DNA of 64,000 bases. It comes from Eubacteriales bacterium. GTDB taxonomy: Bacteria; Bacillota; Clostridia; Oscillospirales; CAG-272. Every line of letters starts with the position of its first letter. Within the stretch, counting starts at the first letter, position 1. The stretch covers positions 1,833 through 65,832 of the forward strand of contig JAZRFH010000015.1 in assembly GCA_045661245.1 (NCBI GenBank), read 5' to 3'. The notes beneath the pieces were generated by a model. That model was not told where the DNA came from. It was given only the letters and a program-made list of their open reading frames with translations, and searched no databases. Positions 22,194-39,027 of this stretch are shown here, piece after piece. The position numbers and the translations under genes are program-made.

Positions 22194-22652
22194 ATGAACG
22201 AAAAGTACTTACCTATTAAGTCAATTTCCGAGGGCGTGTATGAGCTTGCATTGCTTGCAGCGGAGAATAAGCTTGAGCTTGGCACCTACAAGTTTGAGAA
22301 TGACGTTACGGTGAACGTATTCTATACCGACACTCAACCTCCCGAGAAAATAGGATATGAGGCGCATAGAAAGATGCTCGATATTCATATGTGCATAGAG
22401 GGTCAGGAGGGCATCGGTATTTGCTCGCTTGAAACTATGCGTGCCGGAGAGAAGGTATTTGATTATGACGAGTCTAAGGATGCAGAGCTCTATAAGCACA
22501 ACCCGAACGGAACTCTTCACGTGCTTAATCCCGGTGATTTCTTTATTTGCTTGCCCGAGCACGCGCATAAGCCCGGTGCAACACCTCCCGGTGCTGACAG
22601 CAGAATTAAGAAGATGCTTGTAAAGGCACCCGCAGAGCTTGGCAAAAGATAA
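22194..22652 (+). CDS. YhcH/YjgK/YiaL-family (DUF386) protein
   Basis: 152 aa. EAHRKMLDIHMCIEGQEGI and PEHAHKPG match the family's cupin-like His pattern. Confidence 0.75.
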   Translation: MNEKYLPIKSISEGVYELALLAAENKLELGTYKFENDVTVNVFYTDTQPPEKIGYEAHRKMLDIHMCIEGQEGIGICSLETMRAGEKVFDYDESKDAELYKHNPNGTLHVLNPGDFFICLPEHAHKPGATPPGADSRIKKMLVKAPAELGKR

Positions 22653-22672
22653 AAAGATAAAATGTTGTTTTT

Positions 22673-22699
22673 GGGAGCTGAATTATCAGCTCCCTTTTT
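22673..22699 (+). terminator. Intrinsic terminator
   Basis: GGGAGCTGA (22673-22681) pairs with TCAGCTCCC (22686-22694), followed by TTTTTC. Confidence 0.85.
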
Positions 22700-22751
22700 C
22701 TTCAAAATAAGGGCAAGTTGAACTAGTTTATCGCGCGCGCTTTGTATTAAG

Positions 22752-22796
22752 TTAACAAATATGGTTTTAACAAATATTTCTTTAACAAAAGGTGTT
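22752..22796 (+). repeat. Three direct TTAACAAA(T/A) repeats with exact 15-bp period
   Basis: TTAACAAATATGGTT / TTAACAAATATTTCT / TTAACAAAAGGTGTT at 22752, 22767 and 22782. About 100-140 bp upstream of the RDD gene. Confidence 0.8.
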
Positions 22797-22894
22797 GCTT
22801 TTTGTAGATTTTTATGATATCATATTTACGGTTACGTATTTATATATGCGCGGGCATAGCTCGCACTAATTTTGTCTGACAGAAAGGAAAAAGT

Positions 22895-23674
22895 ATGTAC
22901 GATATTCAAAAAGCAAGTGTGCTCAAACGTTTATCAGCCTTTTTGTTTGACTTTATTTTTATCGCTATAATTTCTGTCGGTATTGCCTTTGCGATTTCGG
23001 GAATAACAAATTTCTACGGAACGCTGGACAGTTATCAGGCACATATAGATAATTATGCAGAAGAACATGGAATCAAGCTCGATATAACGGAAGAGGAGTA
23101 TAATGCTCTTTCAGAGGACGAGCGCAAGCTTTATGACGGTATGGGTATGGAGCTCTTTAACAACGAGGACTTTGTGCGCGACTATGAGCTCATTATAAGC
23201 TTGACGCTGGTTATGGTTACTCTCTCGCCGTTCGTTGCATTTTTAATGCTCGAGTTCTTGGTTCCTCTTTTTTTGAAGAACGGACAAACTCTAGGTAAGA
23301 AGATATTCGCTATAGGCGTTGTCAGAATGGACTCTGTGCGTCTTACACCCTTGGTTCTGTTTGCCAGAAATATACTCGGTAAATTCACTATCGGCACTAT
23401 GATACCGCTTTATATGGCGGTGTTCATTTTCATGCAAGCAATATTCGGCATAAGCTTTATGTCACCGCTTGTTTGTATTGTGGTTTTTGCCGGAATTGTG
23501 CTTCTAAACGTAGGATTGTTTATTCTTACACGTACACGCTCGTGCATTCACGACTGCTTTTCAAGCACTGTTGTAGTGGATATGGCTACGCAAATGGTGT
23601 TTGAGTCGGCAGAGGAAAGGCTTGAATATAAAAAGCGTATACATCTTGAGGCCGCAGAGAAGGCCAAATATTAA
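22895..23674 (+). CDS. RDD-family membrane protein
   Basis: 259 aa. N-terminal KRLSAFLFDFIFIAI helix, later TM helices, and a GQTLGKKIF segment typical of the RDD domain. Confidence 0.65.
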   Translation: MYDIQKASVLKRLSAFLFDFIFIAIISVGIAFAISGITNFYGTLDSYQAHIDNYAEEHGIKLDITEEEYNALSEDERKLYDGMGMELFNNEDFVRDYELIISLTLVMVTLSPFVAFLMLEFLVPLFLKNGQTLGKKIFAIGVVRMDSVRLTPLVLFARNILGKFTIGTMIPLYMAVFIFMQAIFGISFMSPLVCIVVFAGIVLLNVGLFILTRTRSCIHDCFSSTVVVDMATQMVFESAEERLEYKKRIHLEAAEKAKY

Positions 23675-23724
23675 ATCTGTAAGCAAAAAAATGAAATATA
23701 TGCACTTTTAGGAGGATATGTTCT

Positions 23725-24912
23725 ATGAAAGTCGAACTGCAAAATCTGACAAAAATATTCCCCAGCCGTAACAAAAAATCCGGTGAAGAGGTGGTAGCGG
23801 TAAATAACTTTACCTTTACTATTCCCGACGGTAAGCTTGTTGGTCTTCTCGGCCCGTCAGGCTGTGGAAAGAGTACGACCCTTTATATGATAAGCGGTCT
23901 GCAAAAGCCCTCTTCGGGTAAAATCTTCTTTGGTGACGAGGACGTTACAGAGCTTTCACCTGAGAACAGAGGTATAGGCCTTGTGTTCCAGAACTACGCG
24001 CTTTATCCCCATATGACTGTAAAGCAGAATATTCTGTTCCCTCTCCAGAATCTTAAGGGCGCTGACAAAATGACAAAGCCCGAAATGATTGAGAGAGCAT
24101 ACCAGGCGGCAAAGCTTGTGCAGATTGACGAGCTTATGGACAGAAAGCCGAGTGAGCTTTCGGGCGGTCAGCAGCAGAGAGTTGCCATCGCGCGTGCGCT
24201 TGTGAAGATGCCCCGCGTTCTTCTCCTTGACGAGCCGCTCTCAAACCTTGATGCAAGACTCCGTCTTCAGACCCGTGAGGAAATCAGAAGAATTCAGAAG
24301 GAAACCGGCATTACCACCGTATTCGTAACACACGACCAGGAAGAGGCTATGTCCATCTCCGACGTTATCGTTGTTATGAAGCTTGGCGTTGTTCAGCAGA
24401 TTGGCAAGCCCCAGCACATCTACGACGACCCTGCAAACCTCTTTGTTGCTAAGTTCCTTGGCACACCGCCCATCAACGTATTCGCAGGCGAGGTTCGCGG
24501 CGGTAAGCTCTATATTGGTGAGGACGAGGTTCTTAAGGTTGATATTGAGGACCGCCCCGTTTACGTAGGTATCCGTCCCGAGGGCTTTATTCCCGTGTCG
24601 GCAAGAAAGAAGATTGCGCTTAACGTTGATATTTCAAACGTTGAGGTTATGGGCCGTGACGTAAGCATAGTTTCCTCTCACCCCGCAATGCTCTCACCCT
24701 CTATCCGCTCTATTGTAGATGCTGATTATAAAATTGACAGAGATGCAGGCTCAATTAAATTTGCCCTTAAGCCCCATAAGGTATTCCTCTTTGATTATGA
24801 AACCGAAGAGAGAATTTACTTTGGCGACCAGCATCCGCTTGAAGCTCCCGAGCTTGTAGAGGAGCCTGTATACGCTGAGGCTATGGAAGAAAACTCTGTT
24901 GAGGAGAACTGA
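23725..24912 (+). CDS. ABC transporter ATP-binding protein (MalK/UgpC/MsmX type)
   Basis: Walker A GPSGCGKST, signature LSGGQQQRVAIARAL, Walker B LLLDEPLSNLD, C-terminal TOBE-like regulatory domain. AGGAGG RBS. Confidence 0.92.
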   Translation: MKVELQNLTKIFPSRNKKSGEEVVAVNNFTFTIPDGKLVGLLGPSGCGKSTTLYMISGLQKPSSGKIFFGDEDVTELSPENRGIGLVFQNYALYPHMTVKQNILFPLQNLKGADKMTKPEMIERAYQAAKLVQIDELMDRKPSELSGGQQQRVAIARALVKMPRVLLLDEPLSNLDARLRLQTREEIRRIQKETGITTVFVTHDQEEAMSISDVIVVMKLGVVQQIGKPQHIYDDPANLFVAKFLGTPPINVFAGEVRGGKLYIGEDEVLKVDIEDRPVYVGIRPEGFIPVSARKKIALNVDISNVEVMGRDVSIVSSHPAMLSPSIRSIVDADYKIDRDAGSIKFALKPHKVFLFDYETEERIYFGDQHPLEAPELVEEPVYAEAMEENSVEEN

Positions 24913-24914
24913 AA

Positions 24915-25850
24915 ATGGTAGAAAGTAAGCAACAGTGGAAGGCTTGGGTGTACCTGGCGCCGGCGATTGCACTGCTGGGAATATTCACCCTGTGGCCTAT
25001 CTTTAATACAATCAGAATAGCGTTCCTCGAGGGTTACAATATAAGCGACCCCGCAGGCACGGTATACAACGTCAACTTTGGTAACTTCCTGTACGTTCTT
25101 AATTACAAGGGATTTATCAACGCCTTGACAAACACGCTTGTACTTTGCGTTATAACGGTGCCGATTTCTACGTTTTTGGCTCTTGTTATAGCGGTTTGCC
25201 TTAACTCTATAAAGGCCTTGCAGAGAATTTATCAGACGATATTCTTCTTGCCTTACGTTACGAACTCCATAGCTATCGGTATGGTATTTATGGCAATGTT
25301 CAATATGATTATAGGCGGCAGTGCCCGCCCCGACTCTGTCGGTATAATCAATAACGTTCTTGAGTTCTTTGGCTTTGATTACATAAACTGGGTAAACGTT
25401 GGCTCTGAAAAATGGGCTAATATGGCAGTTCTCGTTGTGTACATAGTATGGAACGCCCTGCCGTTTAAAATACTAATATTACTCGGCGGCTTACAGAGTG
25501 TAAATAAGCAGTATTACGAGGCGGCAAAGGTTGACGCCACACCCCGTCTTCGCGTATTTACACGTATCACCGTTCCGCTCCTCTCCCCGATGCTCGCGTA
25601 CGTTATTATCACGAGCTTTATCGGCGGATTTAAGGAGTACTCAAGTATTATCGGTATCTTCGGCGAGCAAATGGGCCCTCCCGGTGCTATGACCGATTAT
25701 CCGCTTGATACAATGGTCGGATACGTTTACCGTATGATAGAGGGCGGTAACTACGGTGACGCGAGTGCCGCGGCTCTTATACTCTTTGCAATTATCTTTG
25801 CTGTAACTATGGTTAACCTGTACGTCAGCAAGAAGAAAACACACTATTAA
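24915..25850 (+). CDS. ABC transporter permease (CUT1 family, MalF/UgpA-like)
   Basis: 311 aa, 6 TM, EAA loop (YEAAKVDATPRLRVFTRITVPLL). Confidence 0.9.
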   Translation: MVESKQQWKAWVYLAPAIALLGIFTLWPIFNTIRIAFLEGYNISDPAGTVYNVNFGNFLYVLNYKGFINALTNTLVLCVITVPISTFLALVIAVCLNSIKALQRIYQTIFFLPYVTNSIAIGMVFMAMFNMIIGGSARPDSVGIINNVLEFFGFDYINWVNVGSEKWANMAVLVVYIVWNALPFKILILLGGLQSVNKQYYEAAKVDATPRLRVFTRITVPLLSPMLAYVIITSFIGGFKEYSSIIGIFGEQMGPPGAMTDYPLDTMVGYVYRMIEGGNYGDASAAALILFAIIFAVTMVNLYVSKKKTHY

Positions 25851-25862
25851 AGGAGGTAGACG

Positions 25863-26756
25863 ATGGCTGATATCAAGATTATGACCGAAGAAGATATGAA
25901 AAAGGTCGCCACAAGACAGAAAATTGTAAAAATCATCGTCCAGGTTCTCCTTTATACCTTCCTTTCCGTTATGGCGATTGCCGTGCTTTTCCCCTTCTAC
26001 TGGATGATTATATCCTCTCTTAAGGATATGGCAGAGTACCGCCGCGCTATCCCCACCCTCTTCCCCGAGGTTGTAAAGTGGAGCAACTATATCAAGGTGT
26101 TCCAGAATGAGGACCTGCAGCTTGCACGTCTTTTCGGTAACACCGTTTACGTAGGTATCGTTTCTACGATACTCTCGCTCGTTATCACCGTTATCTCCGC
26201 CTTCGCTTTTGCAAGGCTTGAGTTTAAGGGCAAGAACGCGCTCTTTGCGCTCCTGCTCGCAACGATGATGATACCCGGTGAGCTTTTCACCATCACCAAT
26301 TTCCAGACTATTTCCGCATTCGGATGGAAAAATACGTATACGGTACTTATAGTCCCGTTCCTAGTCAGCGTATTTTACATCTACCTATTGAAACAAAACT
26401 TTATGCAAATACCAAACGAGCTATACCTCGCCGCAAAGGTTGACGGTACCTCGGATATCAAGTATTTGTGGAAGGTTATGATACCCCTGGCACTCCCCAC
26501 CATTATCTCCATCACAATTCTTAAAATGATGGGTGCGTGGAACTCTTATATGTGGCCTAAGCTCGTTGCAAACGACGAGGCGCACAGACTGATTACAAAC
26601 GGTCTTAGAGAGGCGTTCACCACTGAGGCGGGTCAGACCGATATACCCGTACAGATGGCGGCGGTTGCACTCGTATCACTGCCCTTATTCCTTGTATTCG
26701 TATTCCTTCGTAAGTATATTATGAAGGGCGTATCCCGTTCGGGCATCAAGGGTTAA
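25863..26756 (+). CDS. ABC transporter permease (CUT1 family, MalG/UgpE-like)
   Basis: 297 aa, 6 TM, EAA loop (YLAAKVDGTSDIKYLWKVMIPLA). AGGAGG RBS. Confidence 0.9.
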   Translation: MADIKIMTEEDMKKVATRQKIVKIIVQVLLYTFLSVMAIAVLFPFYWMIISSLKDMAEYRRAIPTLFPEVVKWSNYIKVFQNEDLQLARLFGNTVYVGIVSTILSLVITVISAFAFARLEFKGKNALFALLLATMMIPGELFTITNFQTISAFGWKNTYTVLIVPFLVSVFYIYLLKQNFMQIPNELYLAAKVDGTSDIKYLWKVMIPLALPTIISITILKMMGAWNSYMWPKLVANDEAHRLITNGLREAFTTEAGQTDIPVQMAAVALVSLPLFLVFVFLRKYIMKGVSRSGIKG

Positions 26757-26806
26757 GGCACTAAAGCGTTAGCAAAATAAAAAATATATAACGAAAGGTT
26801 TTCACA

Positions 26807-28222
26807 ATGAAAAAGCTTTTATCTCTCACACTTATCCTTGTGATTCTAGGTGTTACTTGTGTATTTTCACTTTCGGGATGCGGCCGCGGCCCTGCTGCAG
26901 ATTTCGTAATGCCCGAGGGTGGCTTTGATACCGAAACACCCGTAGAAATCACCTTCTATCACTCAATGGGTAAGGACCTGCGTGACGTTCTTGACGCATC
27001 TATCGCAGACTTTAACAAGATTTACCCCAACATCACCGTTAAGCACCAGTCCTTCGGTAACTACGACGGCGTTCTCAGCCAGGTAAAGACCGAGCTTGTA
27101 ACCGGTGACCACCCCAACCTCGCATACTGCTATGCAGACCACGTTGCAGTGTACAACGTATCAGGCGCTACTCAGACGCTTGACGTTCTTATGAATGACG
27201 AAACCTACGGTTATACCGAAGAAGAGCGTGCTAACTTTATTGAAGGCGCTCTTGACGAGGGCAGAACCTTCGGTGACGAGTACACCTACCTTATCCCGGT
27301 TGCAAAGTCCACAGAGGTTCTTTACTACAACAAAACCTTCTTTAAGGAGAACAACCTCACCGTTCCCACCACCTGGGACGAGATGGAGGCTCTTTGCCAG
27401 CAGATAAAGGCGCTCAAGCCCAACGATATCCCTCTCGGCTACGACTCCGAGGCTAACTGGTTTATCACCCTTTGCGAGCAGTACGGCTCCGAGTATACCG
27501 ATGCTTCAAAGGACAACCCCTTCACCTTCGATAATGCAACCAACAAAGAGTTCGTAGCCAAGTTCCGCAACTGGTATCAGAACCAGTGGGTTACTACCGA
27601 GGCTCTTTCGGGCGGTTACACCTCATCCCTCTTTACCGGTGAGTCTGAGTCGGGCACCCGTTGCTATATGTGTATCGGTTCTACAGGCGGTGCTACCTAT
27701 CAGCAGCCTAACCAGGTAAACGGTAAGTACGAGTTTGAGGTTGGTATCGCTCCCATTCCTCAGAAGGATGCGGCAAACCCCAAGGTTATCTCTCAGGGTC
27801 CCTCTATCTGTATCTTTAAGGATAACGACCCCCAGAAGGTTCTCGCAACCTGGCTCTTTGCCCGTTACATCACTACTGACGAGGTGTTCCAGGCGGAGTA
27901 TTCTATGTCTAACGGTTACGCTCCCGTTATTAAGTCGGTTCAGGATAACCCTGTATACGCTGACTTCCTTGCAGGCGCAGAAACTGACGGTACTGCAAAC
28001 ATTCAGGCATACGCTGTAAAGGTTGCTCTTGAGCAGTCGAACGCAATGTTTGTATCCGACGCATTCTACGGCTCCAGCGTTGCAAGAGAGCAGGTGGGTA
28101 AGCTTCTCCAGAAGGTTCTTGCATACGGTAAGCTCGACACTACCGCAGCTGACGTTGAGGCTGCCATTAAGAAGGCATTCGAGGATGCTGTAGCTGAGTG
28201 TAAATACCAGACCAGAAGATAA
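26807..28222 (+). CDS. ABC transporter substrate-binding lipoprotein (family 1 solute-binding protein)
   Basis: Signal peptide with lipobox LSGC. The ITFYHSMG .. YYNK .. pattern is typical of CUT1 SBPs. The ligand cannot be inferred from sequence. Confidence 0.85.
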   Translation: MKKLLSLTLILVILGVTCVFSLSGCGRGPAADFVMPEGGFDTETPVEITFYHSMGKDLRDVLDASIADFNKIYPNITVKHQSFGNYDGVLSQVKTELVTGDHPNLAYCYADHVAVYNVSGATQTLDVLMNDETYGYTEEERANFIEGALDEGRTFGDEYTYLIPVAKSTEVLYYNKTFFKENNLTVPTTWDEMEALCQQIKALKPNDIPLGYDSEANWFITLCEQYGSEYTDASKDNPFTFDNATNKEFVAKFRNWYQNQWVTTEALSGGYTSSLFTGESESGTRCYMCIGSTGGATYQQPNQVNGKYEFEVGIAPIPQKDAANPKVISQGPSICIFKDNDPQKVLATWLFARYITTDEVFQAEYSMSNGYAPVIKSVQDNPVYADFLAGAETDGTANIQAYAVKVALEQSNAMFVSDAFYGSSVAREQVGKLLQKVLAYGKLDTTAADVEAAIKKAFEDAVAECKYQTRR

Positions 28223-28294
28223 TTCTGTTTTACTAAAAGCGCGGCCTTGCTTTTAGTGCCAAGGCCGCAAAACCTAAACTTAAGGAGCAAAGCT

Positions 28295-29629
28295 ATGAAA
28301 AAATTAAGCGTTAAGCTTATAGCGGCTCTTCTCATACTCGTTTGTGCGCTCGGATGTGTAGTTGCTTGCGATAATACACCCGAAGAGCCTGTTCACGTAG
28401 ATTACGTTTCACAGGTTAAGCTCGATATGAATTCTCCTACCTTGAAGCAAGAGGTTACCTTGAAGATGCATATCGACGGTGACACTACGCATTTCTACGC
28501 ACCTACCTCTGTTGCTGACGAGGGAGTTATGAAGGCAAGATACCTCGACGTTAATACACCCGAGTCTACGGGAAGTATTGAGGAGTGGGGTAAAGCCGCA
28601 TCTAATTTTACTAAAGAAAAAATAACCGACGCTGTTTCTATTATAGTTGAGTCTAATACCGATAAATGGGAGTTTGACGGTAACGGCCGCCATCTTGTTT
28701 GGGTATGGTAACAGCCTGAAGAGGGTGCAGAGTACCGTAACCTCAATATTGAGATTATTCAGAACGGTCTTGCATTAAACTCGGGCGCAGGTGACTCGCT
28801 TTACGGCTCTTATGCCGTTGCCGCAGTTGCTCAGGCAAAGCGTGAGAAGCTCTACGTTTTCTCAGAGGAGAAGGACCCCACCTATCCTTACGGCGAGGCC
28901 CGCGCGGTTACTCTTAAGGAGCTGCGTACAAACATCGCAGACTACGAGGGTCAGAAGGTAGCCTTTGAGGGTATCGTGGCATATAACAGTGACTGGACCG
29001 CTTACGTTGAGAGCTATGACCCGGAAACCGATATGCACTACGGCATTCAGGTGTTCTACGGCTATAAATCTCAGCTTATCTCAGTGCTTGCACAGGGTAA
29101 TGCGGTACGTATAGTAGGCTCGGTTACACAGTTCTCTGGCACTTATCAGGTATCGGGTCTTACATATCAGGCTATGCGTCCCAATGACCCCGATAACACC
29201 TCAAAGCTCTCGACAGGTAATGAGGTTGCGTTTACCGAGGTAACACCCGAGGTATTCACAGGTGACAAGACGGTTATTATGTCTGACGACTCGACAAAGA
29301 CCTTCCGTTATGAGGAGCTCGCGGTTTCAACGTCCATTTCTATGAAGAATCTCGTTGTTGTTGATATGTATACAACCGCCACAGGCTCGAATAAGGGCGC
29401 AATAACCATCACCTGCCGTGTTGGTAATATAGAGGTTGACGTAAGAACTGCTACTCCGCTTAAGGACGCAAACGGTGATGTTGTTACCGAGGCTTACTTT
29501 GCAGGTAAGACCATTGACGTGCGCGGCGTTGTAGATTACTTTGACCTTAACAATACCGGCAACGGTACTTATCAGGTAAAGGTATACTCGCTTGACGATA
29601 TCTTTATCCACGGCTCGGCTGCCGAATAA
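28295..29629 (+). pseudogene. SNase-type thermonuclease lipoprotein with two C-terminal OB-fold-like domains, interrupted by one in-frame TAA (28709-28711)
   Basis: AAGGAG RBS and lipobox ALGC. SNase pattern HIDGDT .. ARYLDVNTPES .. GNGRHLVWVW*QPEEGAEYRNLNIEIIQNGLA .. AQAKREKLYVFSE aligns with S. aureus nuclease (DGDT / VDTPE / GRGLAYIY..N.ALV.QGLA / A.AKKEKLNIWSE). 28295-28708 and 28712-29629 are in the same frame with no other stop. Confidence 0.8.
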
Positions 29630-29673
29630 TTACTAAGTTCCCCAAAAAATTAAATATATAAGGAGAAACACAA

Positions 29674-32058
29674 ATGAAAAAGCTTTTATGTCTTCTTCTC
29701 ACCGTAGTGCTCTGCTTGGGTATACTTGCAGGCTGCGGCGGAGAAAAATATGACCTTGAAAGCGCAAAGACTGCTCTTGACGAAGCGTATAAGAATCTCT
29801 ACGTTAACGCTTCTAACGACTACGACCTTCCCGGTAAGATAGTAGTTAAAGAGGTTACTTACGCTATTATTTGGACTACAGACAGCTCTTCTGTAACCAT
29901 CAAGGCAAGCACCAGGGAGGGTTACTTTACAGTAGACGTTCCCGAGGCTAACGCAACAGAGGCAACCTATAAGCTTATTGCTACTATCACCGACCCCAAT
30001 GGTGACTCTGTAACTCTTGAGCTTAACAGAACCCTTCCCGTTTACGACAACACAGGCGTTGTTGACCCCAGTGCGCTTAAAGAGAATACTGCATACAAGA
30101 TGTATCTTGAGCAGAAAACTTTTAACCAGACTCTTTTTGCAATTGCTGAGACTGAGAGCGATAACAAGTTTATCAAGACCGTTCTTGATCCCAAGGCTGC
30201 ACCTGATTTCTACGTAGAAATCGTTGAGGGCGGCTACAAGTTCTATACTATGGTTGGTGAGGCTAAGAACTACGTTTATGCTAAGACCGTTGTCGGAACA
30301 GACAATCACGTAAGCAAGTACGTTGGCTACTCTACCACTGAGTCTACCGTTTGGGCTTATGACCCCATCGGTGTATTCTACACTGTAATAGATGCTGAGA
30401 AGTATGGATTTGGAACTTACGGCACCTATAAAACTATGAGCATTTCCGAATACAAGCATTTCACTGCTGATTCGGTTAACGACAGTCAGTTCGTAGTTAA
30501 GTTTATGGAGAAGAGTGTTGCAGAGGCGCTTACTCCTTCACCCGAGCCCACACCCACTCCCAATCCTAATCCCTCTACTGCTCCTACAACAGGTGTAGGA
30601 TATTACGTATCTGCTGCAAACGCTAACGGAACTATTTACTTCAAGGGTACTGTTACGGGCGGTAGATTTGACGCTACTCTTACAAAGAGCGAGGCGGTTC
30701 AGGTTTATCTTGAAAATGCTGCAAACAGCGGTGAATACTATCTCTACTTCAACGTAGGCACAACCAAGACTTACATTGTAATGGGTGACTCCACAACAGA
30801 TGGTAACACTACTACTACTGTTGCCGATGCAACTATATTTGAGTGGAACGCAACTGCTAAAACCATGGTAGTTGCTGATGATACTAACAACCGTGCATTC
30901 GGTGCCGGTGCAACAAGTACTTACAACAACTTCTCTGCATACGATGTAGGCGGAGCTTATAACTGGGCAGCATTTACTGCTGATGGCACAACTCCTACAC
31001 CCACTCCCACTCCCGACCCCGATCCCAATCCTACTCCCGAGCCTACTCCCACACCTACACCCAGCGGCGCACCTGCAGCAGGCATCTATACTGTTTCCGT
31101 TAAAAAGGGTGGCACTACAGTAGTTACTCTTGATGGAAGCAACCACAACGATTATGCATACCGTTGGGCGTTTGGTGATGCAGCAAAGGTTACCTTTGAA
31201 CTCGTTACAGTTAATGGCGGTTATAACATTAAGATAACCACTAACGCTACAGGTGTAACCAAGTACTGGAACATTGTTAAGGTTACAAGCGGCGAAAACA
31301 CCTACTTCAACCTTCTTGCTCAGGATACTGCTACCTCTGTTTGGAAGTGGAATGCAACCGGCAATTACCTCTACGTTACTGTTGACGGTGCTGATTATAC
31401 TGTTATGCAGACAGGCACTTACGAAAACGTTGAGGCAAAAGCTGTTACTACTAACGGCAACATATTCTATCTCACCCCCGCTACTGCTCATACTCACGCT
31501 TACACTATACCTGCTACTTGCACGGTTGCTCAGTCGTGTGTATGCGGTGCTACCACAGGATCTCCCATTGATCACGTTTATGTAAACGGTACTTGCTCTT
31601 GCGGTAAGACTCAGGGCACTACTACCGTTTCCAAGAGCTGGGAAGATATTAAGGACATAGCAGGTGTTACTCCCAGTGCAGGACAGAGCAATACCGGAGT
31701 TATTGATGGTGTTGACATCGCTCTTGATAGCAACATCACAATAGTTTGTGATAAAGCAGGTGCCGGCACAGCTCCCGCTATTTACTCCGGTGGTATCAGA
31801 CTTTACCAGAATGGCGCTACTCTTACGATAACAGCAGGCAACGGTGCTACTATAAATCAGGTTGTTATTACTGTTCAGAATAATAACAGCGGTAAGGGTC
31901 CCATTACAGTAACCGGTGGTACTGCATCTGAGCTTACTAGTGATAAGTACACTATTACTGCTAATGCAGGCGCTACTGAAATCGTTATTACAACCGCAGG
32001 AACTACTTCCTCCACCAGACTTTACGTTGCAAACATTGAAGTTACCTACGCTGAATAA
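29674..32058 (+). CDS. Large secreted lipoprotein with three divergent ligand-binding-like modules, P/T linkers, Cys cluster and beta-rich C-terminal domain
   Basis: AAGGAG RBS and lipobox LAGC. P/T-rich linkers are encoded at 30532-30591 and 30988-31080, and a Cys-rich segment at 31486-31617. No enzymatic motif recognised. Confidence 0.8.
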   Translation: MKKLLCLLLTVVLCLGILAGCGGEKYDLESAKTALDEAYKNLYVNASNDYDLPGKIVVKEVTYAIIWTTDSSSVTIKASTREGYFTVDVPEANATEATYKLIATITDPNGDSVTLELNRTLPVYDNTGVVDPSALKENTAYKMYLEQKTFNQTLFAIAETESDNKFIKTVLDPKAAPDFYVEIVEGGYKFYTMVGEAKNYVYAKTVVGTDNHVSKYVGYSTTESTVWAYDPIGVFYTVIDAEKYGFGTYGTYKTMSISEYKHFTADSVNDSQFVVKFMEKSVAEALTPSPEPTPTPNPNPSTAPTTGVGYYVSAANANGTIYFKGTVTGGRFDATLTKSEAVQVYLENAANSGEYYLYFNVGTTKTYIVMGDSTTDGNTTTTVADATIFEWNATAKTMVVADDTNNRAFGAGATSTYNNFSAYDVGGAYNWAAFTADGTTPTPTPTPDPDPNPTPEPTPTPTPSGAPAAGIYTVSVKKGGTTVVTLDGSNHNDYAYRWAFGDAAKVTFELVTVNGGYNIKITTNATGVTKYWNIVKVTSGENTYFNLLAQDTATSVWKWNATGNYLYVTVDGADYTVMQTGTYENVEAKAVTTNGNIFYLTPATAHTHAYTIPATCTVAQSCVCGATTGSPIDHVYVNGTCSCGKTQGTTTVSKSWEDIKDIAGVTPSAGQSNTGVIDGVDIALDSNITIVCDKAGAGTAPAIYSGGIRLYQNGATLTITAGNGATINQVVITVQNNNSGKGPITVTGGTASELTSDKYTITANAGATEIVITTAGTTSSTRLYVANIEVTYAE

Positions 32059-32094
32059 TTTATTCGGATTTAGATAATTTCTAACCACGCACAA

Positions 32095-32120
32095 AAGCCC
32101 ACCGCGTTTGCGGTGGGCTT
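32095..32120. terminator. Intrinsic terminator hairpin (strong U-tract on the minus strand: rpe/NUDIX operon)
   Basis: AAGCCCACCGC-GTTT-GCGGTGGGCTT. The minus-strand reading is followed by TTTTGT. Confidence 0.8.
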
Positions 32121-32166
32121 AACTTTTATTTAGTAGGTATATTTGCTTTTTAAAGGTATATTTTTA

Positions 32167-32196
32167 GCCGACCGTGTTTTTGCGGTCGGCCTTTTG
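32167..32196 (+). terminator. Intrinsic terminator hairpin (plus strand, end of the lipoprotein locus)
   Basis: GCCGACCG (32167-32174) pairs with CGGTCGGC (32183-32190), followed by CTTTTGG. Confidence 0.7.
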
Positions 32197-32207: not shown

Positions 32208-32714
32208 TTATTTAACGTACCCAAGGGTGCGAAAGTATGCGTCAAGCCTTGCGCGTGAGCGGTCAATCATATCTGCGGAATTGATAAATGCTATAAACTC
32301 CTCTTCACTTACCCATTTATATCCCTCGGTTTCGCCGTATTGCAGAGTAACTGAGTCCTTAGGGCAGTCAACACTTGTAAAATAAGAGTGCACTATAATT
32401 CTATGCTCGTCGTCAATGCTTGTACCGATGTGGGTGAGGTCACCTGCGTCAAGCCCGGTTTCTTCCTTCATTTCACGCCTTGCACAGTCAAGCGGCCCTT
32501 CACCGTATTGCATAGCACCGCCTGCGCCTGCCTCGTACATTCCGCCATAGTCGCGCTTTAAGACCGAGCGCTTCATAAGCAGATAGTCGCCGTCCTTGTG
32601 GCGTATAAGTATTTCACAAGCTACGTGGTAAAGCCCTTTTGGAATAGGCTTGCCGCGGTAAAGCACAGTATCTGTTAATCCACCCTCGCGTGTGTAGGCA
32701 TTCCACTTTTCCAT
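32208..32714 (-). CDS. NUDIX hydrolase
   Basis: Nudix box GGAMQYGEGPLDCARREMKEETGL (GX5EX7REUXEEXGU). The start overlaps the rpe stop by 1 nt (TAATG). Confidence 0.88.
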   Translation of the reverse strand: MEKWNAYTREGGLTDTVLYRGKPIPKGLYHVACEILIRHKDGDYLLMKRSVLKRDYGGMYEAGAGGAMQYGEGPLDCARREMKEETGLDAGDLTHIGTSIDDEHRIIVHSYFTSVDCPKDSVTLQYGETEGYKWVSEEEFIAFINSADMIDRSRARLDAYFRTLGYVK

Positions 32715-33364
32715 TATTTCTCAATAGCCGCACGGAATGCAGCCTTATCCTCAGCCTTATAGAATGCAGAGCCTGCAACAAGCACGTCAGCACCGTTTGC
32801 CTTGCAAATCTCACCTGTTACAAGGTCAACACCGCCGTCTACCTCAAGATGGCACTCGGGATTTACTCTGTCAAGCTCGTCGCGTATTTCGCGCAGCTTA
32901 GGCATCATATCCTGCATAAACTTCTGACCGCCAAAGCCGGGCTCAACCGTCATAACAAGCACAAGGGCGCACTTTTTAAGATAAGGCTTAATAGCGTCAA
33001 GGCCCGTCTTAGGCTTTACAACAATGCCGGGCTTTACGCCGAGTGATGCTATTTTGTCAAGCGTTTTGTCAATGTTTTCGGGTGTGTCAGCCTCAATATG
33101 TACGGTAAGGTAGTCTGCACCTGCCTTACAAAACTCGTCTACGTAGCGGATAGGCTTATCAATCATAAGATGCACGTCAAGCACCATCTCGGTTGCCTTG
33201 CGCAGTGCGCCTACTACGGAGTAACCGAAAGACATATTGGGTACAAAGCTACCGTCCATAATATCAACGTGCAGCCACTTAACGCCTGCTGCCTCGGTTG
33301 CCTCAAGGTCCCTTTTTATATTGAGCACGTCTGCGCCGAGCACAGAGGGGGATAAAATTGCCAT
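32714..33364 (-). CDS. rpe: Ribulose-phosphate 3-epimerase
   Basis: MAILSPSVLGAD.., HVDIMDG, DVHLM, MTVEPGFGGQKF, VDGG motifs. Start set at 33364 (GGAGG 6 nt upstream) rather than the track start at 33406. Confidence 0.92.
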   Translation of the reverse strand: MAILSPSVLGADVLNIKRDLEATEAAGVKWLHVDIMDGSFVPNMSFGYSVVGALRKATEMVLDVHLMIDKPIRYVDEFCKAGADYLTVHIEADTPENIDKTLDKIASLGVKPGIVVKPKTGLDAIKPYLKKCALVLVMTVEPGFGGQKFMQDMMPKLREIRDELDRVNPECHLEVDGGVDLVTGEICKANGADVLVAGSAFYKAEDKAAFRAAIEK

Positions 33365-33514
33365 AACAGCCTCCAATAGAGTATATTTACTCTTATATAA
33401 TAACACTTTTTAAAGCTTATTTCAATATTTTTTGCGATAAAATATATCTGTAAAGCATATATCTTTGTTGTATAATAATGTCGAAACTGCATATCTCATT
33501 TTAAAGGGGATTAT

Positions 33515-34267
33515 ATGGAGCAAAAATTAAAGAGTGCTATGGATATAGGTGAACAGATGCTTATATCGGGCGCTGAAATACACAGAGTAGAGGACAGTAT
33601 AAACCGAATACTCAAGGCTCTGGGCGCTGCGCGTGTTGACGTATTTATTATTACATCAAGTATGATTGTCAGCGTCACAACGCCCGATGGCAGAGTAATA
33701 ACTCAAACGCGCCGTATCAACTCTCTCGGCACAGATTTTGATAAGCTGCATAAGCTTAACGCCCTATCGCGGGGTATATGTGAGGGTAAGATTGCACCCG
33801 AGGAGATTGACGCTGAGCTTGAAAAAATAAAGCCGTCAAAGGTGTACCCATTGTGGGTTGAATTTATATGCTATGCACTTATTGCGGGCGCGTTTACATT
33901 GTTCTTCGGCGGTGATTGGATGCAGGCGGTGGCATCGCTTATTATAGGCTTAATTACGAGGGTTGTGCTATTGGTGTCTGATAACACTGTAAAGAACAAG
34001 GTTTTTTCAAAGTTTGCCGCATCGTTTATCGCAACCGCGCTTGCATATTTAGCAGTGCATATAGGTATGGTGGACGGTTACGACGAGATTATAATAGGTA
34101 ACATTATGGTGCTGATACCGGGTATCGGTCTTACAAACTCCCTGCGTGACCTCTTTACAGGTGACAGTATTACGGGCATTCTGCGTTGCCTTGAGGCCTT
34201 GCTTATTGCCTTGGCTATTGCCGCGGGCTTCTTTGTATTCGTGGCACTGTCGGGAGGTGCGGCATGA
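33515..34267 (+). CDS. Threonine/serine exporter family protein (ThrE N-type, DUF1212)
   Basis: 250 aa. GAEIHRVEDSINRI motif followed by a TM bundle. Confidence 0.8.
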   Translation: MEQKLKSAMDIGEQMLISGAEIHRVEDSINRILKALGAARVDVFIITSSMIVSVTTPDGRVITQTRRINSLGTDFDKLHKLNALSRGICEGKIAPEEIDAELEKIKPSKVYPLWVEFICYALIAGAFTLFFGGDWMQAVASLIIGLITRVVLLVSDNTVKNKVFSKFAASFIATALAYLAVHIGMVDGYDEIIIGNIMVLIPGIGLTNSLRDLFTGDSITGILRCLEALLIALAIAAGFFVFVALSGGAA

Positions 34268-34731
34268 CGGATTTTGAGCTTATTCAGATAATAACCGGTA
34301 CGGTAGGCACGCTTTGCTTTTCTATTTTGTTCAACGTGCGCGGCCGCAGGCTTTTGTTTGCAACGCTTGGTGGCTTAATATCCTGGAGTATTTATCTTTT
34401 ATTCAATCACTTGACGCATAGTGAGGTTTTAAGCTACTTTATAAGTGCGGCGCTTATAACCGTTTACTGCGAGGTAATGGCGCGAGTTATAAAGACACCT
34501 ACCTCTACGTTTATATTGCCGTCCTTGATACCCCTGATACCCGGAGCATCGCTTTACAGAACGATGTGTACGGCGTTTATGGGTGACCTCGGCGGTGTTG
34601 CCGATATGGCAGTATATACGCTTAAGCTTGCGGCGGCGCTTGCCCTTGGAATTATTGTTTCCTCAGCGGCGGCAAAAATTATTTTTCCGCTTTATTATAA
34701 GCTGAAGGTTAAAATTTCTAAAGCAAAATAA
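34264..34731 (+). CDS. Threonine/serine exporter family protein (DUF3815 partner)
   Basis: 155 aa, 4-5 TM, ATGA overlap with the upstream partner. This is the usual two-gene ThrE arrangement. Confidence 0.75.
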   Translation: MTDFELIQIITGTVGTLCFSILFNVRGRRLLFATLGGLISWSIYLLFNHLTHSEVLSYFISAALITVYCEVMARVIKTPTSTFILPSLIPLIPGASLYRTMCTAFMGDLGGVADMAVYTLKLAAALALGIIVSSAAAKIIFPLYYKLKVKISKAK

Positions 34732-34736
34732 AAATC

Positions 34737-34776
34737 GGTGAAGCCGAGGGATTACCAAGGCTTCACCTTTTATTTT
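34737..34776. terminator. Bidirectional intrinsic terminator
   Basis: GGTGAAGCC (34737-34745) pairs with GGCTTCACC (34759-34767). TTTTATTTT follows on the plus strand and an A-run upstream serves the minus strand. Confidence 0.8.
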
Positions 34777-34928
34777 CAGTTTTCCTCGCCATTACGGTTA
34801 AGCTTTGCCGTAAAGTGGCTTATAAGATACGTGGCACCCATAATGATACCAACTATCATAAACACGCCGATCATGCCGACGCCCATATACACGAGGTTGT
34901 TTATAAATTCAATAGGCTCAAACTGCAT
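34776..34928 (-). CDS. Small membrane protein, OadG-like (50 aa; not in the ORF track)
   Basis: Translated by hand: MQFEPIEFINNLVYMGVGMIGVFMIVGIIMGATYLISHFTAKLNRNGEEN. GAGGAGG RBS lies immediately after the oadB stop. A single TM with a GxGMxxVF-like pattern as in decarboxylase gamma subunits. Confidence 0.55.
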   Translation of the reverse strand: MQFEPIEFINNLVYMGVGMIGVFMIVGIIMGATYLISHFTAKLNRNGEEN

Positions 34929-34939
34929 ATTCTGCCTCC

Positions 34940-36052: not shown

Positions 36053-36212
36053 TTAAAACTCCTACAAAGGTAAATTTCCTAATAAGTATACACTATTATG
36101 TCCTGTTTTGCAATACTGTTGTTGAAGGTTTTATAAATTTAACAACTAAACACTGAATAAAGTATAAAAATTGTTCTATCCTTATCAAGAGGGATTTTTT
36201 AAGGGGGGCAAT

Positions 36213-37751: not shown

Positions 37752-37839
37752 ATTTATGTAGCTATATCTTAGATTTTTTGTATAAAGCATTGTAATGCTA
37801 AGAAAAATAAAAAAGCGAGAAAAAAGTAAACAAAACCCC

Positions 37840-37868
37840 TTGACAAAACACTTTTACTGTGGTAAAAT
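37840..37868 (+). promoter_or_regulatory. Sigma-A promoter (extended -10) for tRNA-Gln
   Basis: TTGACA (37840-37845), 17-nt spacer ending in TGG, TAAAAT (37863-37868). Confidence 0.7.
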
Positions 37869-37886
37869 AAAGACTGTTCGAAATAT

Positions 37887-37960
37887 TGGGGAATTGTGTA
37901 ACGGCAGCACGACAGACTCTGACTCTGTTTGTTGGGGTTCGAATCCCTATTCCCCAGCCA
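37887..37960 (+). tRNA. tRNA-Gln (anticodon CUG), CCA encoded
   Basis: TGGGGAA acceptor pairs with TTCCCCA. Anticodon stem-loop ACAGA-CTCTGAC-TCTGT. T-arm TGGGG-TTCGAAT-CCCTA. Discriminator G plus CCA. Collinear with E. coli tRNA-Gln as I remember it. Confidence 0.9.
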
Positions 37961-38148: not shown

Positions 38149-38291
38149 CGCGCTCACAATCTTTGACTACGGTTCAAATACCAAGGGCAAGCAGAATTTT
38201 TTCGTTTTAGGAAATTTTTTCTTTATATAAGTTTTAAAATTATCTATGATAAGCAATATAAATAAACTTTATGCTTTTCTTGATTAGATAA

Positions 38292-38320
38292 TTGACTTTA
38301 TATTTTAGAGATGGTAAAAT
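38292..38320 (+). promoter_or_regulatory. Sigma-A promoter for the flavin reductase-rubredoxin gene
   Basis: TTGACT (38292-38297), 17-nt spacer ending in TGG, TAAAAT (38315-38320). Confidence 0.65.
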
Positions 38321-38356
38321 AAATTCGGATAGAAAAAATAAAACTTAGGAGAAGAT

Positions 38357-38953: not shown

Positions 38954-39027
38954 TTTGTCATAAAGGCTTGGCTGAAATTAACAAAATTGTTTAGGTTCAT
39001 TGTGATGTTATAGAGCTTTAATTTTAA

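Follow-up and report, generated by a model that had tools for sequence, protein, structure and literature searches.

Gene content and limits of the operon

In the window, which is the whole stretch of 64,000 nucleotides analysed in this study, a check of the open reading frames identified six co-oriented genes on the plus strand at positions 23725-32058, each with a ribosome-binding site (Table 1). They code for an ATPase, two permeases, a substrate-binding protein (SBP), a nuclease and a 794-aa lipoprotein (LP794), and are separated by gaps of 2, 12, 50, 72 and 44 bp, exactly as claimed in an earlier note on this DNA. That note left the gene for an RDD-family membrane protein, located 50 bp ahead of the ATPase gene, outside the unit. 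Because it is upstream and co-oriented in all 64 testable relatives, we include it, as the probable first gene of the operon. As judged from the sequence, the unit probably consists of seven co-transcribed genes in the order RDD-ATPase-permease-permease-SBP-nuclease-surface protein, six of which end with TAA.

Table 1. Features of the operon and of the linked salvage genes in the window. Synteny is given as the number of relatives in which the gene is linked to the nuclease gene per testable relatives.
Feature	Position	Strand	Details
Terminator-like hairpin and T-run	22673-22694	+	Closes DUF386 gene; upstream limit of unit
Leader/promoter region	22700-22894	+	Sigma-70-like sites at 22782-22810 and 22876-22903
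RDD-family membrane protein	22895-23674	+	259 aa; Pfam RDD, 45 bits; synteny 64/64
ABC ATPase, UgpC/MalK type (CUT1)	23725-24912	+	Pfam ABC_tran; synteny 66/66
Permease 1, MalF/UgpA-like	24915-25850	+	Pfam BPD_transp_1; synteny 72/72
Permease 2, MalG/UgpE-like	25863-26756	+	Pfam BPD_transp_1; synteny 78/78
SBP lipoprotein	26807-28222	+	471 aa; lipobox LSGC; Pfam SBP_bac_8/SBP_bac_1; synteny 80/80
GC-rich hairpin, SBP-nuclease spacer	28241-28268	+	Stem of ~10 pairs, then AAAACC; without U-tract
SNase-OB-OB lipoprotein nuclease	28295-29629	+	444 codons; interrupted: pseudogene or assembly error
SNase catalytic domain	28415-28855	+	Residues ~41-187
In-frame TAA at codon of Tyr139	28709-28711	+	TAT in closest relative
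Two C-terminal OB-like beta-barrel domains	28907-29614	+	Residues ~205-300 and ~345-440
Modular surface lipoprotein LP794	29674-32058	+	794 aa; lipobox LAGC
LP794 Ig-like N-domain			Residues 50-125
LP794 M-modules (three)			Residues 131-292, 300-440 and 463-612; Pro/Thr linkers between
LP794 Cys-rich stretch			Residues ~612-650
LP794 C-terminal beta domain			Residues 650-794
Two strong terminator-like hairpins	32095-32120, 32167-32190	+	End of unit
SurE 5'/3'-nucleotidase	41842-42570	-	TIGR00087, 158 bits (cutoff 135)
NrnA-like DHH/DHHA1 oligonucleotidase/pAp phosphatase, paralogue 1	42567-43550	-	B. subtilis NrnA 5j21, E = 2e-57
NrnA-like DHH/DHHA1 oligonucleotidase/pAp phosphatase, paralogue 2	43547-44488	-

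The terminator that had been noted ahead of the RDD gene was recovered, with a 9-bp stem containing six GC pairs and the tail TTTTTCTTCA. Strong terminators had been claimed only downstream of the six genes, and this agrees with the two plus-strand sites found there, the remaining terminator-like matches within the unit being weak and located inside coding sequences. The hairpin in the spacer between the SBP and nuclease genes lacks a U-tract, as noted earlier, and is not a terminator. It is possibly an mRNA-stability or processing element; the whole 72-nt spacer folds no better than shuffled sequences (z = -1.1). The leader contains three direct copies of TTAACAAA at about 22752-22797, a repeat kept only in a relative with 97% identity (L001), and it had no match to any Rfam family. 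No known regulator or riboswitch linking expression to nucleotide status was found for the operon.

The nuclease family is present in 511 species-level genomes, and the 80 genomes of the family that were examined all represent uncultured gut MAGs of the Oscillospirales type. Synteny was scored in 84 distinct loci from such MAGs. The SBP and nuclease genes are linked in 80 of 80 testable relatives, as the check on the gene neighbourhood suggested in the earlier note revealed, and the linkage persists among nucleases with as little as about 48% identity. An operon that pairs a surface nuclease with a "sugar-type" ABC importer is kept in hundreds of uncultured gut Clostridia.

The surface nuclease and its partner lipoprotein

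The identification of three products as lipoproteins was borne out by a direct reading of the N-termini, which contain the lipobox-type motifs LSGC (SBP), VVAC (nuclease) and LAGC (LP794), with a cysteine that is invariant throughout the nuclease and LP794 families. The nuclease scored 37.1 bits against the Pfam SNase model (gathering score 21), and its SNase residues are IDGDT (D61/D63), R82, N87, T88, E90 and R132, which we mapped by hand to the S. aureus nuclease sequence, N87 presumably replacing D40 of SNase. The family has over 6000 homologues, about 440 aa in length, in which the SNase motif residues are invariant. Weak matches to the Pfam models tRNA_anti-codon and tRNA_anti-like were obtained for five and four, respectively, of 12 family members, and a Foldseek search with the C-terminal half of an AF2 model recovered tandem-OB DNA binders (Teb1 AB, two-OB SSBs, HIN-200) with E-values of 2e-7 to 1e-4. 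Since the model is of low confidence (mean pLDDT 51; 65-79 in the OB-like parts), we assign the tandem OB-like domains with moderate confidence.

Of the earlier description of an SNase protein with two OB domains, the catalytic domain thus stands, the OB domains stand moderately well, but the gene is not intact. The in-frame TAA represents a T to A change relative to the TAT (Tyr) codon in the 97%-identical relative, at a tyrosine that is near-invariant across the family and in a position where none of the 84 relatives has a stop. It cuts the protein short at residue 139, within the SNase fold and just past the Arg87-equivalent strand. Either the nuclease is inactivated here by the Tyr139-to-stop change or the assembly carries an error; barring the latter, the locus as encoded cannot perform the cleavage because the protein is truncated within the fold. 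With a genuine stop, the cell would have to rely on fragments produced by its neighbours or by other nucleases.

LP794 is the most variable member of the locus, with a mosaic structure and a recognisable form in 44 of 63 relatives. Its M-modules represent an unannotated domain family, possibly with a beta-trefoil fold. Where Pfam recognises an enzymatic or nucleic-acid-binding domain in the relatives of LP794, the match is to a nuclease or to an OB fold, and a glycosidase or protease was never seen among their Pfam enzymatic domains. DNA binding by LP794, as proposed earlier, was not supported by any result; the evidence for beta-trefoil-like repeats is itself weak.

The lectin-like (beta-trefoil) look of the modules would suit binding to a matrix or to cells, and the nuclease could have a non-nutritional role in remodelling of extracellular DNA in biofilms or matrices, in protection from foreign DNA or from extracellular traps of the host, or in antagonism of competitors, next to an unrelated sugar importer. 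SNase-type surface nucleases in staphylococci and mycoplasmas act in this manner (PMC9740415). However, the linkage of nuclease and SBP in every testable relative, at such low identities, is beyond coincidence, and salvage enzymes recur nearby. We therefore regard this explanation as most improbable, while a dual role for the nuclease, nutritional and other, is possible.

Ligand class of the substrate-binding protein

The ATPase scored 344 bits against the UgpC model NF008653, which is under the cutoff of 432, and ends with a weak MalK-OB/CysA domain followed by a 30-aa acidic tail. For the SBP, searches with family models confirmed a CUT1-type protein. Among solved structures, the Thermus proteins of the 7C0x series rank first (E = 2.5e-15), followed by UgpB (4e-11); overall similarity is low, with a weak match of 59.5 bits that covers residues 57-390 only. 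We take the PDB entries 7C0F-7C1B to be, probably, the UpG (U3G) dinucleotide-binding SBP of Thermus thermophilus, a CUT1 protein reportedly described by Chandravanshi et al. in FEBS J in 2021. Close relatives with an oligosaccharide ligand, which the earlier note had named as evidence to the contrary, were absent, the nearest solved ones being binders of phospho-ligands.

Alignment with the solved relatives predicts a phosphate-coordinating tetrad (Y86, S168, S292 and Y371) together with R427. This Tyr/Ser/Ser/Tyr set and the C-terminal Arg are common to the SBP, the Thermus protein and UgpB from E. coli (4AQ4), a marine bacterium (9LFF) and M. tuberculosis (6R1B). Among the 81 members of the SBP family, S168, S292, Y371 and R427 are each invariant (81/81), and position 86 is Tyr in 52 and Trp in 29. 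Gln330 is common to the family and the Thermus protein, as compared to Gly in the UgpBs. In contrast to these proteins, the SBP is longer, is a lipoprotein and lacks the glycerol-binding features of UgpB: the Trp clamp and Glu66 are not retained in the family, W169 being replaced by Tyr and Glu66 by Pro or Ala. The SBP also gave a weak match to the model for the mycoplasma P68 lipoprotein (24 bits, far under the cutoff). In a published comparison, the Thermus UpG-binding protein is set beside UgpB within CUT1, and the two Tyr and two Ser that coordinate phosphate are conserved in UgpB and in the proteins that bind GPC and UpG, but are not kept by glucose-binding proteins (PMC12718374). The SBP family would thus be placed in the UgpB/phospho-ligand branch of CUT1.

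The similarity to UgpB also raises the possibility of phosphorus scavenging, with import of glycerophosphodiesters or organophosphates and the nuclease as one of several phosphodiesterases under phosphorus limitation. UgpC, UgpA, UgpE and UgpB are indeed the best-scoring models for the ATPase, permeases and SBP, and UgpB is among the top solved relatives, with the same phosphate tetrad. We nevertheless consider such a function very unlikely, since every NCBIfam Ugp score is far under its cutoff (59 bits against 411 for the SBP), the glycerol clamp is lost, and the neighbouring genes are for nucleotide salvage (kinases, NT5C, NrnA) rather than of the Pho type. Phosphate is also rarely limiting in the gut.

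Linked salvage genes and a proposed route for nucleic-acid fragments

The genes for SurE and two NrnA-like proteins are located 10 kb from the operon on the opposite strand in the window, and adjacent to it in relatives. Both DHH proteins are most similar to NrnA of B. subtilis (E about 1e-57). None of the three proteins has a signal peptide, and they are predicted to be cytoplasmic. SurE and DHH genes occur within 10 kb of the operon in 22 of 24 relatives, and the triad (41842-44488) is a conserved satellite of the operon. The six genes that the earlier note considered to be the full functional unit are thus joined by both the RDD gene and this triad. Among the 84 loci, an NT5C-guanylate kinase fusion is found beside the core in 30 and thymidine kinase in 11, while 5'-nucleotidases of the Metallophos/5_nucleotid_C type, with signal peptides and Cys N-termini, are encoded near the core in 24.

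We consider it likely that the operon scavenges nucleic acids and imports phosphorylated mono- or oligonucleotides. The membrane-anchored nuclease would hold extracellular DNA or RNA by its two OB-like domains and cut it into short products, which by SNase chemistry would be 3'-phosphorylated mono-, di- and oligonucleotides. The SBP would capture a phosphorylated product and hand it over to the transporter, made up of the two permeases and the UgpC/MalK-type ATPase, after which the two NrnA-like DHH/DHHA1 enzymes and SurE may break the fragments down to mononucleotides and nucleosides in the cytoplasm. In relatives, the NT5C-guanylate kinase fusion and thymidine kinase could feed these back to the nucleotide pool. 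LP794 would be a variable surface accessory, probably for binding or scaffolding. For the harvest of extracellular nucleic acid suggested in the earlier note, each of the computational checks proposed there spoke for the central idea, namely the SNase and OB models, the nuclease-SBP linkage and the relatives of the SBP; the parts not supported are cleavage in this genome and DNA binding by LP794. Additional support, beyond that note, comes from SurE, the two NrnA-like genes, the kinase genes and the surface 5'-nucleotidases.

The presence of surface 5'-nucleotidase lipoproteins in 24 of 84 relatives makes extracellular dephosphorylation feasible and favours uptake of nucleosides. The CUT1 importer could then carry nucleosides, deoxyribose or ribose, with SurE and NrnA as housekeeping enzymes; neutral sugars are the usual CUT1 load, and nucleoside kinases are encoded nearby. 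We find an unphosphorylated cargo unlikely, however. The SBP family keeps the phosphate-coordinating tetrad and Arg, a phosphodiester or phosphate is the ligand of its nearest solved relatives, and no surface nucleotidase was found near the operon in 60 of the 84 loci or in this window. The tight linkage of SurE and two NrnA paralogues is also hard to reconcile with entry of nucleosides only. Moreover, known ABC importers of nucleosides have BMP-type SBPs, as in mycoplasma P48 (PMC12892991). These BMP-family (CUT2) systems, including the NupABC/BmpA type, similarly use a lipoprotein SBP for uptake of nucleic-acid building blocks, but differ in SBP fold and permease families and take up unphosphorylated nucleosides, whereas the system in the window is predicted to be CUT1 with a phosphate-binding signature.

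The operon has parallels in two other systems. In Hujiaoplasma nucleasis (Izemoplasmatales), a locus for nucleic acid degradation is induced by DNA/RNA and likewise groups ABC transporters and NrnA with an extracellular nuclease (PMC10470597). As far as its published outline goes, this nuclease is a ribonuclease, in place of the SNase-OB lipoprotein, and an RDD or M-module protein is not reported. The mycoplasma precedent named in the earlier note is real (PMC3585158): P80-SNase-ABC operons are co-transcribed and have been proposed to import nucleic-acid precursors (PMC3585158; PMC9740415). Examples are P80/MAG_5030-MAG_5040-MAG_5050/5060/5070 in M. agalactiae, mhp379 in M. hyopneumoniae, MHO_0730 in M. 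hominis and Mpn133 in M. pneumoniae. By gene content, these operons are similar to the one described here, in that an SNase surface lipoprotein gene adjoins those for an SBP lipoprotein, an ATPase and two CUT1-like "sugar" permeases, but the order is SBP-nuclease-ATPase-permeases as compared to ATPase-permeases-SBP-nuclease in the window. The latter system additionally has the conserved RDD gene, the tandem-OB extension of the nuclease, the variable M-module lipoprotein and the linked SurE and two NrnA genes, and it occurs in gut Clostridia that have walls and form spores, whereas the mycoplasmas are wall-less parasites.

Organization, boundaries and conservation of the predicted operon

All six genes that the earlier note had grouped into one locus, from the ATPase to the 794-aa modular surface lipoprotein (LP794), were found where it had placed them (see the table below). 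The substrate-binding protein (SBP), the nuclease and LP794 carry lipobox-like N-termini (LSGC, VVAC and LAGC, respectively), in agreement with the claim that three of the products are lipoproteins. A Shine-Dalgarno sequence is present at every operon gene, and the gaps from the ATPase gene to LP794 are 2, 12, 50, 72 and 44 bp. Terminator-like hairpins with T-runs bracket the block at both ends, as had been proposed, and no internal terminator was seen between the operon ends; the internal hairpin reported previously exists and does lack a U-tract. The short gaps, together with this placing of the terminators, are indirect evidence that the nuclease and transporter genes may be co-transcribed.

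Features of the operon and of other genes in the window.
Feature	Coordinates	Strand	Remark
AddA-type helicase-nuclease	42-3218		UvrD helicase + PD-(D/E)XK
Upstream hairpin	22673-22694	+	T-run
Three direct copies of TTAACAAA	22752-22797		leader
RDD-family membrane protein	22895-23674	+	50 bp upstream of ATPase gene
ATPase	23725-24912	+	ABC_tran, UgpC/MalK-like
Permease 1	24915-25850	+	BPD_transp_1
Permease 2	25863-26756	+	BPD_transp_1
SBP lipoprotein	26807-28222	+	SBP_bac_8 / SBP_bac_1
Internal hairpin	28241-28268		no U-tract
Nuclease lipoprotein	28295-29629	+	SNase
In-frame TAA of nuclease	28709-28711	+	codon 139
LP794, 794-aa lipoprotein	29674-32058	+	without Pfam match
M-module repeat region	30064-31509	+	LP794 residues 131-612 (alignment A4)
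Downstream hairpins	32095-32120; 32167-32190	+	T-runs
Intervening genes	32208-41749		unrelated to operon
SurE + two NrnA-like DHH/DHHA1 genes	41842-44488	-	cytoplasmic processing triad
Surface-polysaccharide genes	51137-62876		ten co-oriented genes

We compared the window proteins by tblastn to 84 distinct loci from relatives, with each gene counted where the contig reached far enough. The order RDD-ATPase-permease-permease-SBP-nuclease was invariant, with counts of 64/64, 66/66, 72/72, 78/78 and 80/80 from RDD to SBP, at nuclease identities down to about 48%. Linkage of the nuclease to the importer in relatives, which the earlier note had named as its key test, was thus seen in every testable locus. 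The proposed limit of six genes was too narrow: the RDD gene, located 3' of the upstream terminator and behind promoter-like sites, was present and co-oriented in all 64 testable relatives and appears to belong to the operon unit. RDD proteins are not known to have a function connected with ABC importers or with nucleases.

The nuclease family has more than 6,000 database matches, mostly of about 440 aa, and a scan with one genome per species identified relatives in 511 genomes. The best 80 of these 511 are all MAGs, labelled Oscillospiraceae, Acutalibacteraceae, Faecousia, Eubacteriales or Clostridia, and derive from gut samples of ruminants, deer and humans. A locus labelled “Mollicutes bacterium Phil14” (MSHB01000016.1) contains the complete operon, with proteins that are 50-76% identical to those of the window; this identity suggests that the label may be a taxonomic misassignment, and the locus may represent either a misassigned Oscillospirales-like MAG or a hint of a link to the Mollicutes. 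Literature searches for the operon in Clostridia, Oscillospirales or Oscillospiraceae turned up no published account, as the earlier note had surmised for Clostridia-type genomes, and a paper on the segmented filamentous bacterium mentions extracellular nucleases only in general terms. Among uncultured gut Clostridia the operon is thus fixed and widespread, and it has so far gone undescribed. Its fixation in a large Oscillospirales block (511 species-level genomes) may point to nucleotide cross-feeding or to a reliance on nucleic acid of dietary, host or microbial origin, and could suggest culture supplements for these organisms.

The leader contains three direct copies of TTAACAAA, spaced by about 16-17 nt and located just upstream of a promoter-like site. 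The triplet is common only to the window and its 97%-identical relative, and for this reason it may be a lineage-specific operator. No k-mer was enriched among 65 leaders upstream of RDD. An Rfam search of the whole window at gathering score recovered one tRNA only, and a scan of 22500-23800 at E <= 1 gave no match; neither a riboswitch nor any other known RNA element was thus identified.

The importer has the composition of the CUT1 family (TC 3.A.1.1), with a MalK/UgpC-type ATPase that includes a C-terminal regulatory domain (ABC_tran, 130 bits), two MalF/MalG-type permeases (BPD_transp_1, 64 and 68 bits) and an SBP (SBP_bac_8, 128 bits; SBP_bac_1, 91 bits). The ATPase scored 344 bits with the UgpC model and 287 bits with the MalK model, both under the equivalog/subfamily cutoffs, and its C-terminus gave weak matches to OB_MalK and CysA_C_terminal. 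The best NCBIfam models for the permeases were MalF/UgpA and UgpE/GlcU. The ATPase is 395 aa long, as compared to 365-367 aa in relatives of 76-84% identity; the extra ~30 residues form an acidic, Glu-rich tail (24823-24912) that is common to the 97-99% relative.

The nuclease and its partner lipoprotein

The SNase assignment in the earlier note held when the nuclease was checked against the Pfam model (PF00565, 37.1 bits, as compared to a gathering score of 21), which matched all 12 aligned family members, and the family profile reached S. aureus nuclease structures (E = 7e-9). The motif IDGDT and residues D63, R82, T88, E90 and R132 are invariant in the 12-member alignment, and the position of SNase D40 is occupied by Asn87 in nearly all members. 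The correspondence with the catalytic and Ca2+ residues D21, R35, D40, T41, E43 and R87 of S. aureus nuclease was assigned by manual alignment and is tentative.

The reading frame of the window nuclease is continuous with an in-frame TAA at a codon that is a nearly invariant Tyr in the 12 aligned family members, and the C-terminal third of the SNase domain is thereby removed. Since the 97%-identical relative has TAT at this site, a single T->A change accounts for the stop; none of the 84 relatives has a stop inside the nuclease gene. A frameshift was rejected as the source of the split reading frame, which is continuous and can be explained by the one substitution, and recoding or an alternative genetic code was rejected as unlikely because TAA is the ordinary stop of 6/7 operon genes. 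When the sequence is aligned manually with S. aureus nuclease, the stop lies directly past the Arg87-equivalent strand, with loss of the C-terminal helices. SNase fragments truncated in this manner are unfolded. The nuclease is 97% identical to that of the 97% relative, as compared to 94-100% for the neighbouring genes, and the part 3' of the stop is equally conserved, which suggests a recent event, a variant within the population or an error of assembly. The window copy represents either a natural loss of function or an assembly error, and unless it is the latter, the cleavage step envisaged in the earlier note would be lost in this genome. If real, the nonsense mutation provides a natural knockout for comparative work.

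The C-terminal 240 residues of the nuclease form two beta-rich domains. The AF2 model is poor overall (mean pLDDT 51), with values below 50 in the SNase part and of 65-79 in the C-terminal domains. An alignment of no more than 12 sequences and the X at residue 139 are the probable reasons, and the model was used for the OB question only. Foldseek matched the C-terminus to Teb1 AB, two-OB SSBs and HIN-200 (probability 1.0, E = 2e-7 to 1e-4, low TM-scores), all of which bind DNA. Pfam OB models matched 5/12 and 4/12 family members, all below gathering score. Taken together, the structural matches and the recurrent weak Pfam hits make the proposed architecture of an SNase plus two OB-like domains reasonable, and we assign it with moderate confidence.

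LP794 starts with a signal/lipobox and an Ig-like domain (about 50-125), followed by three repeats of ~140 aa, here called M-modules (131-292, 300-440 and 463-612), with Pro/Thr linkers between them; a stretch rich in Cys and then a beta domain make up its C-terminal part. The M-module motif is AYK..Q..TLYA.G..FYVE.V.GGYKFYT..G.K.YV..W.Y..GTY..Y.T.S.SE..QFP. Neither the whole protein nor its individual modules had a significant match in Pfam, NCBIfam or PDB sequences. A word-indexed search with the M-module profile returned 5 proteins, and an exhaustive HMMER profile search recovered 1,987 cluster representatives, proteins of 400-2,500 aa in which the module occurs 2-7 times. Among 47 M-module proteins, aBig_2 was a companion in 14 cases, OB folds in 3 and nuclease domains in 2, and no other companion recurred; one of the 47 matched Inhibitor_I66, a beta-trefoil family, and several direct relatives of LP794 carry Endonuclease_NS, Endonuclease I or OB folds. 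These companion domains associate the M-module with nucleic-acid-degrading surface proteins.

The model of module 1 (pLDDT 82-95, 12 strands) gave weak Foldseek matches, all of them to beta-trefoil proteins, and the fold is possibly a beta-trefoil of the ricin-B/Kunitz-like type. If so, binding of glycans or of ligands in general would be a more natural function than binding of DNA, and the capture of DNA by LP794 that had been proposed is unsupported. The gene located 3' of the nuclease always encodes a large but variable lipoprotein, with a recognisable LP794-like segment in 44/63 loci. The M-module represents an unannotated domain family of ~2,000 cluster representatives, found in large surface proteins that sometimes carry nucleases.

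Ligand signature of the SBP and the mycoplasma precedent

The nearest solved relatives of the SBP were a Thermus series (PDB 7C0F-7C1B; E = 2.5e-15), which is probably the dinucleotide (UpG) binder of FEBS J 2021; UgpB proteins came next (E about 4e-11). The earlier note had listed a close orthologue that binds an oligosaccharide as evidence against its reading, and none was found among them. A Thermus uridylyl-3'-5'-guanosine-binding CUT1 protein groups with UgpB and with a mycobacterial glycerophosphocholine binder, and two Tyr and two Ser with a role in phosphate coordination show strict conservation among the three, which does not extend to glucose binders (PMC12718374). We adopted this definition of the phosphate tetrad (E. 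coli UgpB Y42, S121, S247 and Y323; PMC12718374) and aligned the UgpB and Thermus sequences, taken from the PDB search output, with 80 SBP orthologues.

Ligand-site residues of UgpB and the aligned residues of the SBP (family columns, n = 81).
UgpB	Window SBP	Family
Y42	Y86	Y 52, W 29
S121	S168	S 81
S247	S292	S 81
Y323	Y371	Y 81
R374	R427	R 81
G283	Q330	Q 81; Thermus protein likewise Q
W169 (glycerol clamp)	Y212	Y 81
E66 (glycerol contact)	A110	P 74, A 7

The SBP has the phosphate tetrad of the UgpB/phospho-ligand branch, with the first Tyr replaced by Trp in 29/81 family members, and UgpB W172 is kept as W218. The glycerol-specific features of UgpB are not conserved, since W169 is Tyr in all 81 sequences and Glu66 is Pro or Ala. 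These replacements (Tyr212 and Ala/Pro) and the score with the NCBIfam UgpB equivalog (NF008211, 59 bits, as compared to a cutoff of 411) speak against a G3P-binding UgpB sensu stricto. At the low similarity to the solved relatives, the residue pattern is suggestive, not proof, of a phosphate- or phosphodiester-containing ligand other than G3P.

The mycoplasma precedent named in the earlier note is accurate: in M. agalactiae, a contiguous and co-transcribed set of genes encodes P80, predicted to be a sugar-type SBP, together with the SNase MAG_5040, an ATPase and two permeases (PMC3585158), and the arrangement is kept in the M. hominis group (PMC3585158; review PMC9740415). The window likewise has an SNase lipoprotein gene contiguous with the genes for an SBP, an ATPase and two permeases, but it is set apart by its gene order, its RDD gene, the OB-like extension of its nuclease, the M-module protein and the linked set of NrnA-like and SurE genes. 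The SBP matched the mycoplasma P68-lipoprotein model weakly (24 bits, as compared to a cutoff of 200). By analogy, the window system would work like the mycoplasma one. The nucleoside-binding lipoprotein P48 of mycoplasmas was rejected as an analogue, since it is part of another transporter. In an Izemoplasmatales isolate, a locus that is induced by DNA/RNA contains a nuclease, NrnA and ABC transporters (PMC10470597). What the SNase-linked ABC transporters of mycoplasmas carry has been a matter of conjecture since 2007; the window family makes the question directly testable and offers hundreds of diverse, walled and non-pathogenic orthologues, a clear SBP and residue predictions (Y86, S168, S292, Y371, R427 and Q330).

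Linked nucleotide-processing genes and the proposed route

SurE was identified by its equivalog model (TIGR00087, 158 bits, as compared to a cutoff of 135) and by Pfam SurE (155 bits). Both NrnA-like proteins contain DHH and DHHA1 domains above the Pfam gathering scores, with B. subtilis NrnA as the best PDB match (E about 1e-57), and scored 232 and 245 bits with NF053633, for which the cutoff is 350. The triad was located within 3-10 kb of the nuclease in 22/24 loci with enough flank and is a conserved satellite of the operon. Although operon and triad are adjacent in relatives, a stretch of about 10 kb with unrelated genes (NUDIX, ribulose-phosphate 3-epimerase, two small membrane proteins, OAD beta subunit, a PLD-type (cardiolipin synthase-like) protein, a tRNA, a flavin reductase-rubredoxin fusion and alpha-L-rhamnosidase) lies between them in the window, which suggests that this lineage has undergone an insertion or a rearrangement.

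Other genes of nucleotide metabolism were identified in subsets of the 84 loci. A cytoplasmic fusion of NT5C (5'(3')-deoxyribonucleotidase) and guanylate kinase is encoded directly upstream of RDD in 30 loci (e.g., L003 of one relative, 2633-3754) and is absent from the window; this unusual phosphatase-kinase fusion fits with 3'-nucleotide processing. A thymidine kinase was found in 11 loci, with no signal peptide in the example from the relative's locus L002. Metallophos/5_nucleotid_C nucleotidases were found in 24 loci (e.g., L007 of another relative, 13492-15024), and none was found in the window. They have a signal peptide plus a Cys N-terminus and are for this reason predicted to be surface-exposed lipoproteins; a Cys-rich “DDDxNGVCDxC” stretch is conserved after the lipobox.

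Cleavage by SNases leaves products with a 3'-phosphate, from mono- and dinucleotides to short oligonucleotides. The nuclease product would be captured by the SBP through its phosphate-binding signature, moved into the cell by the UgpC/MalK-type importer and processed by the two cytoplasmic NrnA-like enzymes. NrnA degrades 2-5-mers and takes the 3'-phosphate off pAp. SurE, a 5'/3'-nucleotidase, would act on the mononucleotides left by the NrnA-like enzymes, and in relatives the NT5C-guanylate kinase fusion and thymidine kinase would finish the route to the nucleotide pool. The components plausibly form a coherent route by which nucleic acid outside the cell would feed the nucleotide pool; gene content, synteny and residue conservation were observed directly, and we infer the identity of the substrate and the flow. 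The main rival is that nucleosides are imported after dephosphorylation at the surface, as favoured by the surface nucleotidases in the 24 loci that encode them, but import of nucleosides is a poorer fit to the phosphate signature of the SBP and to the NrnA/SurE linkage. The core of the nucleic-acid harvest reading in the earlier note is supported, with three corrections: the window nuclease is broken, the role of LP794 is unproven and the unit has more than six genes.

Bacterial uptake of phosphorylated nucleotides or oligonucleotides is poorly documented. A broader reading, which we consider possible rather than probable, is that the operon represents a widespread CUT1 family that imports intact phosphorylated fragments (3'-NMPs, dinucleotides and short oligonucleotides), is fed by an OB-tethered surface nuclease and drained by paired NrnA plus SurE, and serves as the main nucleotide supply of many uncultured gut Oscillospirales. 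Such a family would also provide the missing substrate assignment for the mycoplasma SNase-linked transporters, with the RDD and M-module proteins as new accessory components.

Elsewhere in the window, the AddA-type protein is an ordinary recombination gene unrelated to the operon. The block at 51137-62876 may be of horizontal origin, with a markedly lower GC content of about 37%, as compared to 45%. Its products make up a pathway for surface polysaccharide, with a Bac_transf priming transferase, GT1/GT4 glycosyltransferases, UDP-glucose dehydrogenase, UDP-GlcNAc 2-epimerase, a hexapeptide acyltransferase and a Wzy-like polymerase.
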